The notes beneath the pieces were generated by a model. That model searched no databases and was not told the origin of the DNA. It saw only the letters and a list, made by a program, of their open reading frames with translations. A stretch of 64,000 nucleotides of DNA from Dictyostelium discoideum (Eukaryota). The position numbers and the translations under genes are program-made. This document shows, in pieces, positions 1 to 64,000 of the stretch (positions within the stretch are counted from its first letter, which is position 1; every line of letters begins with the position of its first letter). The stretch spans positions 3,584,001-3,648,000 of the forward strand of contig CM000152.2 of NCBI GenBank assembly GCA_000004695.1. The letters run 5' to 3'.

Positions 1-1216
1 ATATTTTAACATGTGATATCCAATAAAAATATAATAAATAAACTTGATCATCCAAACAATCTCTATTTTTTCAGTTAGATTTGTATATTCTATTGTAATT
101 TTACATTTAACACATTTCAAATTATATAATCTCATCATCAATTATTTTCTGAATAATAAAAATTTAAATTACTAATATTTTACTATTTTTGATGGTAGTT
201 ATATTTTTTTTTTTCATTTTATGAACAACTTTATATAAAAATTTTGACGATATGAAATAATCATTCAAAATCTTTAAAGTGTTTACTATTAGTGGTAATA
301 ATTGTAAAAAAAAAAAATGTTTATATTTTTGCGAATGAAAATAATAAAAATATACAATCATACCACACTCAACAAATATACCATAGTACAATAATTTTGG
401 GGATCAAATTTATTTTTTTTTAAAAAAAAAAAAATAATAGTGATAATAGGTAATGGGTGGAGTGGGTTCGAATTTAAAAAAATTATTAATATTATTTATT
501 ATTATTTTTATTATCAACAAAATAAAAAAAATTTCAAGCTCACGCTAACACTACAAATTTATTTAAATATTTAATTTTTTTTTTTTATAATTATATAATC
601 AAAAAAAAAAAAAAAAAAAAACTTAAAATTTTATATGTAATAATGAATTTAAATAAAGATAAAAAAATAATTTATTAAATGAATTAATATTAATATTTTT
701 TAAAAATTTGTTATTTGATATTTGTGAAATTTAAATTTTACCTTTGACAATTTAAATAAAATAAAAAATGAATAATTCAAATTGAGAAATAAAAAAAACA
801 ATAATAAAAAAATTAACACTTTAAGTAAAGAATTAAAAAATAAAAAAAATAAAAAATAATAATAATAATTACAGAAAATCAGAAACAATCGTGTAAAAAA
901 AAAATGATTTTGAAGATATTTTTTATTTTCAAACAATTTGGTTGAGATATTTTTTTTTTTCAGACAATTGGAATTCAGAAAAAACTATTTTTTTAATTTT
1001 TTTTTTTAAATGATTGAAATTGTGTTTCTTTTTTTTTAATGTTCTAAGAAGACCAACACTTTAATTATAACAAATAAAAAATTAGGTTTTAAAAATGATT
1101 TGTTAAAAAAAAAAAAAAAAAAAAAAATGCAAAGATTGATCCTATTTAAAAGTTATTTTTTTTTTTTTTAATCATTAAATAAAAAATATAAAAATAAATA
1201 TATAAAATAGTAAATA

Positions 1217-1538
1217 ATGGTTCAATTGAAGAATTATCAGATTTAAAAGTTAGAAAGATATATGATCTAAATGTATTTGGTGTTTTAAATTTATTAAAAA
1301 ATTCAAAATTAATTGATGAATATTCAACTCAATCATTCATCGAAATGTTTAATAAATATTCACCACATTCCAAAAGTGATCCTGAAAAAGTTGCTGAACT
1401 CTTAATTAAATTACCAACAATTACCAAATAATTTATTCATTGGATCTGATTCATTATCAACTGCTAAACAACAATTACAATCACATTTATTGGAAGCTGA
1501 AAAATGGTCTGACCTTTCAATTTCAACAGACTACTAAA
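1217..1538 (+). pseudogene. Orphan coding remnant (two short in-frame blocks, separated by a stop and frameshift) in an otherwise non-coding AT-rich region. Not identified.
   Basis: Coding-like composition. Translation NGSIEELSDLKVRKIYDLNVFGVLNLLKNSKLIDEYSTQSFIEMFNKYSPHSKSDPEKVAELLIKLPTITK* is followed by FIGSDSLSTAKQQLQSHLLEAEKWSDLSISTDY*. No start codon or upstream exons are visible in the window. Confidence 0.25.
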
Positions 1539-2247
1539 AATATTGGAAAAAAAAAAAATTAAATAAACCTTTTTGTAAATAATAAACCTTTCAATTTCAA
1601 CTGGTCTTTGAAAAAAAAAATATATATTTTTTTCATTTCTTTTTTTTTCATTTAATATTAATCATTTTTTAAAAAATCTAATATTTCAATTCTTTATTTT
1701 TTCTTTTTTTAAATTTAATTATTCATTTTTTTTTTATTTTAATATAACCTCCAATATGATAAACTTTTTTTTTTTTTTTTTTTTTTTTTTTTTTTTTTTT
1801 TTTTTTTTTTTCATTTAATTGGGAAAAAAAATAATAAAAAATAAAAATTATTAAAATAGAACACCAATAAGAAGATCTTAAAATTCTAATCAAAAAACAA
1901 ATGGAAATATTTTCTTTTTTATTTCTATTTTTTTTCAAATCTAAAAATAACTTTCTTAAAAAAAAAAAAAAAAAAAAGACGTGGTTTAATATTTAAATTT
2001 TTATTTTTTAATTTCATTTTTTGTGTGGCTTTTTTATTTTTTATATGCATTCACCACATGCACAACTATACAGTCAACGCTTTCATTTAATTTCCCCATT
2101 TTCTCACCAACAACAAAATACTATAAAATGAAAAAAGAAAATATTCATTTATTAAATAACAAAATAAAAAACAAATAAAACAAATAAAACAAATTTATAA
2201 ATAAATTCATTTAATAAATAATATAAAATAAAATAAAATAAAATAAA

Positions 2248-2814
2248 ATGTTATCAGAATTTTTCAACAGTTTAGCATCATTTTTTAGTAATATATTCTC
2301 ATTATTTGAAGGTAAAAAAGATACAAGAATATTAATGATTGGACTTGATGGTGCAGGTAAATCAACACTTTTATTTAAATTAAAATTGGGTGATGTAGTT
2401 TTAACCATTCCAACCATTGGATTCAATGTCGAAACTATTGTATATAAAAATTTATCAATGACAGTTTGGGATGTAGGTGGTCAACATAAAATTCGTGCAT
2501 TATGGAAACACTATTATCATGGTACAAATGCAATCATCTTTGTAGTTGACAGTACTGATCGTGAAAGAATGGATGAAGTTAAAGAGGAAATTGATAATCT
2601 TTTAATCCAAGATGAATTAAAAGGTATACAAATATTAGTACTTGCAAATAAACAAGATATGAATAATGCAATGAATACCGCAGAAATTGTAAACTCTTTA
2701 AATTTAAATTCAATTAAAGATAGAAAATGGTATGTCCAACCATGTAGTGCCATTAGATCAGATGGTATATATGAAGGATTTGATTGGGTAGCAAATTCAC
2801 TCAATAATAAATAA
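2248..2814 (+). CDS. ARF-family small GTPase (Arf/Arl-like), intact single-exon 188-aa protein
   Basis: The ORF carries a G1 P-loop [10 protein letters not shown]3 WDVGGQ, G4 NKQD and G5 CSA. Four decayed paralogues in the window align to it. Confidence 0.9.
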
Positions 2815-3079
2815 ATAAATAATCAAATAAAAGCCTTATATGTTAGTCAGTAAAAATACAAGGCTTTACTGACTAATATACAGTAAAAATAAATAAAGAT
2901 TAATAATTTTTTTTTTTTTTTAATAAACACTTATTTATTGATTTATTTTTTATTTTTTATTTGTTTTTTTTTATTATTTTTTTATTTTTTTTGTTTTTTT
3001 GGTTTATTTATTAATTTATTCGTTGTATTTTTTTTTTTTTTTTTGATTGTTTAATTAAACTACACAACTGACAGATGAT

Positions 3080-61240: not shown

Positions 61241-61979
61241 TTTTATTAATAATTATTAAAAAAAGAAAATTAAATTAGAGAAATAATAATTAATATTGAG
61301 TAATTAATTAATTTTTTTTTTTTTTAAAAAAATAATAACAGCATGGGTTGGTAAAAAACTGTGTGAGATTAGTTGGCATGTGGAAAAAAAAAATATATAA
61401 TAATAAAACACAAAGAATTTCAAAAAAAAAATAAAAATATATAAAAAATAATAAATGTATGAAATAAAAAAAATGTTTTTTTTTTTTTTTTTTTTTAATG
61501 ATTAATTTTTTATTATTAATTTATTTACCTTATATATTTTATTAGTTATAAATACAAAAAGTATTTTTTAAAAATTATAATAATATTCATTTTAATAATA
61601 ACAATTTTTTTTTTTTTTTTTAATTTATTATTATTGTCATTTTCATTTTCTTTATTTTCATTATTATTATGATTTATTATAATAAATCATAGAAATAATG
61701 TAAATAGAGATATTCAAAATGACAACAATAATAAAAACGTTTTTCACACCAAAAAGAATTAAATTTTTTTTTTTTCTTTTTTTTTTTTTCTTTTTTTTTT
61801 TTTCTTTTTTTTTCAAAAACCTTCAAATTTTTTTTTTTTTTTTCATTTTCCATCATCTTTATAATTAATAATAAATGTAATTTTTCTTTAAAAATAATTC
61901 ATTTTTTATTTTTATTTTTTTTATTTTATTTTTTAAACCGTACATTTTATTAACTGTTATTAATTAATTATAAATTACT

Positions 61980-63600
61980 ATCATATGGACAAAGGCCAAC
62001 AACAAAAAGATTAACCACCTTCAAGATGTTGAAAAAGTGAATGAAGAAGAAAATAAAGTTTATAGTATCAGCATCACCAAAATTATATACATCAAAACCC
62101 ATATCACCTACTAGTAGTGGTAAAACTTCAACATGTTGGTAGAATATTTAGCAAGGCACTAAGATAGAGCCAGATCTGGATTATTTCAATTGTTTTATTC
62201 AAGTAGTTATCTTTTTTTTTTTTTTTTTGTGAAAATTTTAAATCAAAGATCAGGTGATATGGAATTCGATCAATTATCATGGTATCAGCATCAAATCCTA
62301 TAGAAACACTATCAATTCGCGTCCACCATCATCTATCGTTTAATGACCTATCCTGCAACTGATCCGGATTGGCAAATATTTTAACTGGTTTAGAATTATT
62401 CTACGTAAATCTTTAGAATGGTAATCACCAAAAGATCCAGAGCAACCATTAGGCGATAAAGACAAAACAATTGGTAGTAAATCAAATGTTTCAAAACTGA
62501 TGAAGAGATGAAAGATGAATCTAAGGTAATGCTGATGACAATAGTGGTATGACTTGGCCAACTCCATCTAAAAATAATACAGACATGTGCTCTTAACATC
62601 TTAAATTTCAACCACTACCACCACCACAATCAAGGGTATAACTCTGACTCTCAGTGGATATTCCACAAAATAAAGCTCAAGATGGTCGAGTAGAACAAGA
62701 AGAGGATCAAATGGATATCGATAATGAAGAAGAAGATGATATGGCTGTTGATCATAAACAAGAAATTAAACATCAAGATGATTCTAAACAACTCAATGAA
62801 AATAAAAAGATATCAATTTAAAACAAGATCAACATAAACAACATAAGGAAAAAGAAAAAGAAAAATTGGAAAAGATCAATAAGATGGTGAAGATGATAAA
62901 TTGGATGGTTTAAATCAAAAAGAACAATTCACAGAGGAACAATTAAAAAATTTCACAAATACTGAAAAGAAGATCTGGACAATTGGGACTTATTCTTGAA
63001 CCAACTTTGGCAACTAAATTACAAGGAGATTATAAACCAAAACCAACCAAGAGACAATATCAAGTTTTATTGACAATCATCGATAATACTTAATCAATGG
63101 CTTCCTATCACTGTGGTTTTGCATTAGAAGCTATGATACTATGATTTCAATGTAGTTGGTCAGTTAGGTATTGTTAGATTTGGAAAGATGATATTCAATT
63201 GGCGTTCATTCGATCAAGTTTTCTGATCAAACGCAGTGTCCTGCCTGAAATCACACAATTTAAACTCCAACAAACTAAAACCAATATGGTTAACTTCCTC
63301 TCCAAAACCCTTCAAGTCATGGATATGAATAAACGATCAAGTTTAGGTGAACTATGCATTGGTTTTCATTGTTTTTGATGGCTGAAGTTTTAGTGATCCA
63401 GAAACTACAAAGAAATATCAAAGATCAGGTTTAAATTTATTACGATCAATCATTCATAATAGATTCAAATCTAAAGGACATGAAAGAGATTAGAGGTTAC
63501 CAATAGTTAGCTTTTTAATTAGAAAAAATTGGGTATTGTATGATCAATTATTGTCAATACTAATCTCATCAATCAACACCTCAACTCATTAAATTCAGAT
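61980..63600 (+). pseudogene. Degenerate pseudogene remnant with coding-like composition and stops in every frame
   Basis: Less AT-rich than intergenic DNA. The region 62300..63100 is homologous to the reverse complement of 43900..44700. Confidence 0.35.
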
Positions 63601-63633
63601 GGTCCAAAGAAGATAGATCTAAAAAAGATAAAG

Positions 63634-63825
63634 CAGCAGGGACTACAACAGCAACAACACCAACACCAACACCAACACCAACAGCGACAACAACACCAAC
63701 ACCAACAGCGACAACAACACCAACACCAACACCAACACCAACACCAACACCAACACCAACACCAACACCAACACCAACACCAACACCAACACCAACACCA
63801 ACACCAACACCAACAGCTGATAAAC
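63634..63825. repeat. (CAACAC)n hexanucleotide microsatellite of about 30 units
   Basis: Direct repeat. The track ORFs 63581..63829 and 63643..63834 are artefacts of it. Confidence 0.9.
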
Positions 63826-64000
63826 CCATTTCATTCTAAAGTTATATGCTAATGGTTATAAAACTATATCCACAATAACAATTATCATCTGAAATACTAG
63901 GAAAATCAAGAATGAACAAAAATTACAACAACCACCATTACAAGAACTAAAAGAATAAACCACAATATTAGTAATAGTTATAGTATTAGTTATAGTATTA

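Follow-up and report, generated by a model that had tools for sequence, protein, structure and literature searches.

Base-level structure of repeated ARF-tgrC-tgrB units in the tgrBC allorecognition locus of Dictyostelium discoideum

Gene content of the window

The DNA analyzed here, a stretch of 64 kb that we call the window, very probably belongs to the tgrBC allorecognition locus on chromosome 3 of Dictyostelium discoideum, of the AX4 type; no evidence contradicts this identification, and its G+C content of ca. 22% is as expected for Dictyostelium. In this organism, the ligand TgrC1 is bound by the receptor TgrB1 of a neighboring cell, and only matching allele pairs bind, allowing coaggregation and cooperative development while mismatched cells are excluded, so that segregation is controlled by allele-specific heterophilic TgrB1/TgrC1 binding (PMC12142906, PMC11088635, PMC12745789). 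The 104-kb tgrBC locus has been described as a hypermutable hotspot of intralocus recombination, duplications, and inversions (PMC12745789; Holland et al., PNAS 2025), with paired diverging tgrB/C genes on one common promoter, tgrB often truncated while tgrC is retained, and frequently duplicated arr and gta neighbors (colored in Figure 4 of PMC12745789). We use the names tgrB_ps and tgrC_ps1 of Polo Prieto et al. (bioRxiv 2025, 10.1101/2025.10.22.684067), a study that also reported tgrB2 as a truncated, extremely polymorphic gene with no transmembrane domain, strongly expressed in strain QS33, found intermingling of paralogs indicative of interlocus gene conversion, and discussed birth-and-death evolution.

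Gene copies were located by tblastn with the intact ADP-ribosylation factor (ARF), tgrC, and tgrB proteins, by blastn of the window against itself, and by pairwise alignments of each copy; the E values of the copy matches (0 to 1e-50) are far beyond chance. The window holds five ARF copies (one intact, four pseudogenes), four tgrC copies (two intact, two broken), and three tgrB copies (one intact, one truncated, and one pseudogene), distributed over five units (Table 1). A permissive tblastn search of the window (E up to 5) detected no credible ARF or tgr fragment outside these five units, and neither Rfam nor tRNA scanning of the complete window gave a match. An earlier note on this DNA had described a repeated unit formed by ARF (+), a tgrC-like gene (-), a promoter, and a tgrB-like gene (+). 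Order and orientation in all units were reproduced by tblastn, blastn, and alignments, and the units also emerge from the self-comparison of the window that the note had proposed as a check.

Domain content was taken from a listing of open reading frames (ORFs) and Pfam scans. The Tgr-family domains TIG and Ig_TgrO1 (TgrO1-like Ig) were found in the proteins of the window, with ORFs carrying IPT/TIG and TgrO1-like Ig domains at 3080-5581 (-) and 46672-49191 (-) and TIG ORFs at 49930-52447 (+) and 56963-57931 (+). For tgrC1 the matches had E values of 5e-22 (TIG) and 1.9e-27 (Ig_TgrO1), those of the unit 1 tgrC-like gene were similar, and TIG was also matched by the tgrB1 exons, tgrB2, and the tgrC remnant of unit 5. 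Spliced models, built with GT..AG introns that preserve an open frame, were then looked up by exact sequence. Domain search and look-up agree in assigning the family to Tgr, as the earlier note had done, and not to another one.

TABLE 1 Features of the five ARF/tgr units and the repeats flanking unit 2 (positions within the window)
Unit	Feature	Positions	Strand	Characteristics
1	arrK (ADP-ribosylation factor K)	2248..2814	+	Intact, 188 aa
1	tgrC-like gene	3080..5805	-	Intact, 885 aa, XP_641091 / Q54V40; intron 5720-5653
1	tgrC-proximal promoter half	5806..5990		185 bp of homology; no tgrB after it
2	Direct repeat, left	21433..22221		0.8 kb; 160-aa gene 21551-22033, no known domain
2	ARF stub	24519..24620	+	First ~100 nt only; abuts tgrC_ps1
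2	tgrC_ps1	~24655..26770	-	Several 1- and 4-bp frameshifts; without last ~208 codons
2	Promoter copy	26771..27117		91% identical to unit 4; ~200 bp including tgrB start codon deleted
2	tgrB_ps	27118..28132	+	No start codon, first ~40 codons gone, frameshifts, 146- and 231-bp deletions
2	Direct repeat, right	30007..30793		0.8 kb; 160-aa gene 30124-30606, no known domain
3	ARF pseudogene	42750..43247	+	Frameshifts, 65-bp deletion; ARF-tgrC spacer continues to 43461
3	"Remnants"	43467..45293		Non-tgr: midasin-like, Argonaute PAZ-like, copy of 55674-56055
4	ARF pseudogene	45991..46500	+	Multiple frameshifts, 45-bp deletion
4	tgrC1 (lagC)	46672..49406	-	889 aa; exon 1 49406-49328, intron 49327-49263, exon 2 49262-46672
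4	Shared intergenic region	49407..49929		523 bp between tgrC1 and tgrB1
4	tgrB1	49930..52846	+	902 aa; exons 49930-50874, 50963-52385, 52506-52846
5	tgrB-proximal promoter half	56692..56962		Upstream of tgrB2
5	tgrB2	56963..58068	+	339 aa, truncated, no transmembrane segment; intron 57905-57990
5	ARF pseudogene	59332..59893	+	8-bp deletion
5	tgrC remnant	60106..61240	-	Interior replaced by (GAA)31 run
5	tgrC-proximal promoter half	61241..61472		Found by blastn

The tgrB1/tgrC1 pair and its intergenic region

The spliced models of the two large genes of unit 4 match TGRC1_DICDI (P42523 / XP_641123) and TGRB1_DICDI (Q54V07 / XP_641124) of strain AX4 residue for residue, and the pair is therefore tgrB1/tgrC1 itself. 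The best named matches of the unit 4 tgrC ORF were LagC AAF72532 (99% identity) and the deposited tgrC1 alleles (89 to 94%). Adjacent, divergent, full-length genes with a common intergenic promoter are found only here, with the distance given in Table 1 running from start codon to start codon. Unit 2 keeps the divergent arrangement with both genes broken, and units 1, 3, and 5 have no partner. Read by eye alone, the Tgr proteins seem to have hydrophobic N termini, one of them being MKVIYIYLLLLLVCKFLF, and the C termini of tgrC1 and tgrB1 seem to consist of a hydrophobic segment followed by a basic tail, as would suit type I membrane proteins with a signal sequence and a single transmembrane segment.

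Alignment of the units revealed two conserved blocks in the intergenic sequence, one on the side of each gene. On the tgrC side, the block recurs in units 1, 2, and 4 and, weaker, in unit 5. The tgrB-side block, AAATTCTAAAAATAGAGGCTATCTGGTGAAT...GTGTGGT...GTTAAACCCC, occurs in units 2 and 4 as well as upstream of tgrB2, and D. citrinum and D. firmibasis have a recognizable part of it between their paired tgrB and tgrC genes. The conserved bidirectional promoter proposed by the earlier note is thus borne out by blocks that are conserved between units. Downstream, between tgrB1 and tgrB2, a 94-bp tandem repeat (2.1 copies, 98% identity) spans positions 53761-53958.

The composition attributed to the other units was also recovered for unit 1 (intact ARF and intact tgrC-like gene without tgrB), unit 2 (ARF stub fused to a tgrC pseudogene, plus a tgrB pseudogene), and unit 5 (truncated tgrB-like gene, ARF pseudogene, and gutted tgrC-like gene in a rearranged order), as was the ARF pseudogene that accompanies the intact pair of unit 4. 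In unit 3, the ARF pseudogene stood, while the "scrambled remnants" next to it turned out to be non-tgr: beyond 43461, permissive tblastn found no tgr similarity, and the idea of scrambled tgr pieces was rejected, the matches being to fragments of midasin and Argonaute and to other parts of the window. A C-terminal (MIDAS) fragment of midasin lies at 62426-63117 (+), with an inverted and more decayed copy at 43698-44376 in unit 3; the frame is broken across several frames (E=1.5e-5 against solved midasin chains), and another isolate has part of it next to an ARF pseudogene (L006 17545-18247). An Argonaute-like PAZ piece (44778-44966, -; E=1.7e-5) and a Piwi piece (55265-55552, -; E=8e-5) both fall below the Pfam cutoff. 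The PAZ piece resembles a sequence of another isolate (L008 437-616, 82% identity) inside an annotated 929-aa gene near ARF and tgrC, and the DNA at 44973-45293 duplicates 55674-56055.

Authenticity of the copies and extension of the series

Repeats of this kind could be produced by the assembly itself, if reads from just one ARF/tgrC/tgrB unit were expanded or joined wrongly, the more so as short reads reportedly cross-map among tgr paralogs (bioRxiv 10.1101/2025.10.22.684067). We found no evidence for such an artifact. The tgr and ARF copies are 73 to 93% identical, that is, they differ at 7 to 27% of nucleotides, with indels and breakpoints peculiar to each copy in blastn and alignments. 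Moreover, a second D. discoideum assembly (GCA_054883475.1) is collinear over window positions 1-7102 (99.56% identity) and 36641-59433 (99.74%), 30 kb in all, which comprise units 1, 3, 4, and most of 5, with unit 2 lying outside the compared ranges. This agrees with the published comparison of AX4 and AX2, 99.5% identical across the locus without rearrangement (PMC12745789). Because the second assembly is collinear and the copies have diverged, the assembly duplication that the earlier note had named as a possible objection is refuted for units 1, 3, 4, and 5, and we give it practically no credence as an explanation for the repeats.

The series is not confined to the window. A sixth unit lies to its left, ca. 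2.6 to 6 kb from position 1 (L004 10001-13360), with an intact tgrC-like gene of 865 aa (P0026) and ArfJ convergent downstream, and so the series extends past the window. At its C terminus (3080-3170), the unit 1 tgrC-like protein is hydrophobic and lacks a basic cytoplasmic tail, unlike TgrC1, in which a transmembrane segment is followed by a tail; the tgrC-like protein of the sixth unit has the same tail-less hydrophobic end (L004 12580-12667). These two unpaired proteins might have a different membrane anchor.

Copy content was suspected by the earlier note to be strain specific. Other isolates do differ in arrangement, in agreement with the literature. Intact genes and pseudogenes of one family thus stand in tandem, with a content that differs between isolates, as expected of birth-and-death evolution. 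Birth-and-death evolution, recombination or gene conversion, and a strain-specific copy structure are all reported for the locus in the literature (PMC12745789; bioRxiv 10.1101/2025.10.22.684067), and our own comparisons point the same way.

Divergence and decay of the copies

The unit 1 block at 2151-5990 matches 45894-49601 of unit 4 by blastn. At the protein level, the unit 1 tgrC-like product and TgrC1 share 66% of residues, within the range of 60 to 70% that had been estimated for the two intact proteins. Synonymous divergence (dS) and the ratio of nonsynonymous to synonymous divergence (dN/dS), obtained by the simple Nei-Gojobori method and rough in a genome of ca. 22% G+C, were 0.30 and 0.74 for tgrC1 versus the unit 1 gene, 0.24 and 0.87 for tgrC1 versus the copy left of the window, and 0.16 and 0.74 between the two unpaired copies. 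The low protein identity is therefore due to fast protein evolution (dS 0.16 to 0.30, dN/dS 0.74 to 0.87) and not to great age. Of the "old, diversifying duplication" suggested by the earlier note, the old age is not shown by such dS values.

The same note had described the units as being in different states of decay. This holds for tgrC_ps1, tgrB_ps, the four ARF pseudogenes, and the tgrC of unit 5, all of which are unambiguously broken. In the latter, the 5' part has frameshifts and deletions of 210, 63, and 32 bp, a single TIG domain is left, and the (GAA)31 run is followed by the transmembrane segment and tail. The description may not extend to every copy, and several points weigh against it as a general rule. 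The two unpaired tgrC-like genes are intact, arrK and arrJ (dS 0.075, dN/dS 0.33) are, judging from these ratios, under purifying selection, and tgrB2 may be functional rather than decaying. The homology of tgrB2 to tgrB1 ends ca. 80 nt into exon 2, and a 339-aa gene is annotated at its position in the second assembly too.

Several of the apparently decaying copies could be working genes: tgrB2 might yield a TgrB fragment that is secreted or serves as a decoy, and the tgrC-like genes without a partner might supply extra ligands that permit partial cheating. The open frame of tgrB2, its spliceable intron, and its conserved tgrB-side promoter block speak for such a role, as do the intact frames of the tgrC-like genes of unit 1 and left of the window. 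In QS33, tgrB2 is reportedly expressed at about the level of tgrB1 and tgrC1 and is among the most polymorphic genes (bioRxiv 10.1101/2025.10.22.684067), and extra tgrC copies have been proposed to allow cheating (PMC12745789). However, tgrB2 and tgrC2 to tgrC5 are described as weakly expressed or silent during the development of AX4 (PMC12745789), the dN/dS values of the tgrC paralogs fit relaxed constraint as well as diversifying selection, and the copies listed above are broken beyond doubt. On balance, we consider it possible but somewhat unlikely.

Mosaic structure of tgrC_ps1

Identity between copies is not uniform along their length. Between tgrC1 and tgrC_ps1 it reaches 95 to 97% at both ends and falls to 83 to 88% in alignment columns 601-1000, and between the unit 1 tgrC-like gene and the copy left of the window it varies locally from 78% to 98%. 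We translated tgrC_ps1 conceptually and compared the product with TgrC1 of AX4 and with wild alleles. Residues 130-412 of tgrC_ps1 are 92% identical to the wild allele C0JMP6 versus 84% to AX4 TgrC1, and the relation is reversed at residues 26-75 (92% to AX4 TgrC1 versus 73% to C0JMP6). At the sites where AX4 and C0JMP6 differ, tgrC_ps1 sides with AX4 at 22 and with C0JMP6 at 6 within residues 21-129, whereas within residues 130-412 it sides with C0JMP6 at 26 and with AX4 at 2 (Fisher P=6.7e-8). The second segment is the region in which tgrC1 alleles differ most in the present comparison. The tgrC_ps1 of AX4 is thus a mosaic of tgrC1 allele types, a new result of this work.

The pattern indicates that recombination or gene conversion took place between the tgrC_ps1 lineage and tgrC1 allele lineages, in a direction that it does not give. 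Whether broken copies act as an archive of cassettes that donate tracts to the expressed pair is a further step, which we find plausible, if slightly short of probable, from the tracts described here. Two considerations stand in its way. A comparison of tgrB2 and tgrB_ps with nine TgrB1 alleles gave no clear allele-specific mosaic signal, and, with respect to tgrC_ps1, the mosaic identifies neither a donor nor a working new specificity, so that a role as reservoir is not proven. If it were true, cassette donation would generate new recognition types in single steps, which would account for the renewal of diversity in the face of selection against rare types (Crozier's paradox). The 2025 papers had already put forward the archive idea; evidence for tgrC at the level of tracts would be new.

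ARF genes and their association with tgrC

The intact ARF gene of unit 1 encodes exactly ARFK_DICDI (Q54V41 / XP_641090; Pfam Arf, E=2.3e-70) and has intact nucleotide-binding motifs (GxxxxGKS/T, DxxGQ, and NKxD class, with NKQD visible); the other four copies are disrupted. The products of arrK, arrJ, and arrH start with MLSE or MLSD and have no N-terminal Gly2 for myristoylation, which makes them "ARF-related" and not canonical ARFs, matching their database names.

In all five units of the window and in the sixth one, ARF is convergent with tgrC and lies 130 to 270 bp downstream of it. In three other discoideum-clade isolates, too, tgrC is closely followed by an ARF gene or pseudogene, and one of these isolates has two such units head to head. 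The tgrB/C pairs examined in D. citrinum and D. firmibasis have no ARF closer than 10 kb, and arrH, a close paralog (93% nucleotide identity), lies on another chromosome with no tgr neighbor; no association of ARF with tgrC was thus seen beyond the discoideum clade. Because ARF stands only beside the discoideum-clade loci examined, the divergent tgrB-tgrC pair is the old core, and ARF is most likely a passenger captured within that clade.

A constant position in six units and three other isolates, together with the purifying selection on arrK and arrJ, could also be expected if ARF worked together with the Tgr proteins, for instance by trafficking them, and had been retained beside tgrC for that role. 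But the ARF next to the working tgrC1 is a pseudogene, neither the D. citrinum and D. firmibasis pairs nor arrH show the association, and the mentions of arrJ and arrK that we found in the literature come only from transcriptome-type studies. We therefore judge a functional partnership very unlikely and retain the passenger as the preferred explanation.

Flanking repeats and the mode of duplication

Unit 2 is flanked by two direct repeats (Table 1) that are 94% identical to each other by blastn, and its left flank (20.5 to 24.6 kb) is duplicated, in a condensed form, at 41.4 to 42.85 kb, where it runs into unit 3. Both the direct repeats and the duplicated flank are plausible substrates or products of unequal recombination, and the former are possible substrates for the gain or loss of the whole unit.

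A family of noncoding repeats, tandem with a period of ca. 220 to 290 bp, is found at 12986-13517 (+), 16501-16681 (-), 19295-19344, and 28394-29090, and had no match in Rfam or tRNA scans. A protein kinase gene (14294-15796) is located between inverted copies of this family. One array begins ca. 260 bp beyond the end of tgrB_ps, and the same repeat abuts a truncated tgrB in another isolate (L006 6447-7219).

This proximity to broken tgrB copies would fit a spread of the units by a mobile element that carries or mobilizes them. Nevertheless, the ORFs scanned contain no transposase or reverse-transcriptase domain, the window has no tRNA genes, unit boundaries vary from copy to copy, and neither transposon enrichment nor a breakpoint motif was found at the locus (PMC12745789), all of which make a mobile element highly improbable.

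Around tgrB1/tgrC1 lie partial copies of one ancestral segment of ARF (+), tgrC (-), promoter, and tgrB (+), in which frameshifts, deletions, truncations, and local rearrangements have since accumulated. We infer that these copies were made by repeated local segmental duplication. The ARF (arr) gene would have been captured as a passenger into the duplication unit within the discoideum clade, and silent copies may exchange sequence with the expressed genes, providing a reservoir of variant cassettes for new recognition types.

Other genes and a compact island at 31.7 to 38.5 kb

Two GATA zinc-finger genes are located at 11385-12077 (+) and 20056-20451 (+); the tgrB/C pairs of D. firmibasis and D. 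citrinum likewise have GATA genes at distances of up to 10 kb. Between 31.7 and 38.5 kb, the window contains an unusually compact island that is relatively rich in G+C (0.26 to 0.41), lacks AT-rich spacers, and comprises about a dozen short ORFs without introns. Just to its left, a 300-bp inverted repeat (84% identical, 30787-31087 and 31425-31722) surrounds an AT-rich spacer.

One of the island ORFs (32454-32642, +; annotated as DDB_G0280655) is an intact gene of 62 aa of the HicA family, a bacterial-type toxin. Its match to Pfam PF07927 scores 63.6 bits versus a cutoff of 27, and it keeps the G-x-H-x-Q-F motif with the catalytic histidine in the alignment to solved HicA structures. An exact look-up of its product returned no gene record. 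No HicB partner was found; both flanking ORFs are on the opposite strand with no family match in Pfam, PHROGs, or NCBIfam, and the neighboring ORF DDB_G0280661 had no detectable relative in the database searched. The nearest relatives of this HicA (43 to 61% identity) are on short metagenomic contigs, the best one beside a gene for an Mrr-type restriction enzyme, and a literature search found no paper on HicA in Dictyostelium. Although the HicA gene is bacterial type, a recent foreign transfer of the island is not supported: its codon usage is Dictyostelium-like, and its DNA has no match in phage and plasmid collections, so any transfer was not recent. Three further ORFs of the island (33047-33481, -; 34324-34740, +; 34907-35353, +) are paralogs of 138 to 148 aa with the common N terminus MTSI(F/H)..L(I/V)LQD and no match in Pfam, PHROGs, or NCBIfam.

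Comparison with known systems

The tgrB1 and tgrC1 genes are the best-characterized "greenbeard" genes and a model for the origin and maintenance of polymorphic self/nonself recognition. The copy structure of their neighborhood bears on that question and has already been mapped over 12 genomes and many wild strains. The window is the same locus as the published AX4 tgrBC locus, with no substantive difference (PMC12745789; bioRxiv 10.1101/2025.10.22.684067). The locus, its pseudogenes, the truncated tgrB2, and the coduplicated arr and gta genes are already published, and the earlier interpretation is correct and known; the window adds confirmation and coordinates rather than discovery. What we add is a map of lesions at base level, an explicit definition of ARF-tgrC-promoter-tgrB as the repeated unit, the direct repeats on either side of unit 2, and the mosaic test of tgrC_ps1.

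Recognition families with birth-and-death evolution are also known from animals, in the major histocompatibility complex (MHC) and KIR genes of vertebrates, the Alr complex of Hydractinia, and the fuhc region of Botryllus. Like them, tgrBC combines clustered Ig-like surface receptors, extreme polymorphism, tandem duplicates with pseudogenes, and haplotype variation in copy number, and the parallel with the MHC has been drawn before (PMC12745789). Unlike them, it shares no common ancestry with the animal systems, places ligand and receptor side by side as a pair, and controls cooperation during the aggregation of a haploid organism.

A second parallel is offered by silent cassettes that serve as archives for gene conversion, such as the pseudo-V genes of chicken immunoglobulins, the variant surface glycoprotein (VSG) genes of trypanosomes, and pilS of Neisseria. 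The tgrBC locus resembles these in having broken or silent copies near an expressed gene, with mosaic tracts common to the alleles of that gene. In those systems, however, conversion is programmed and takes place within the lifetime of an individual, whereas the putative transfer at tgrBC would be evolutionary, in the germ line of a clonal amoeba.

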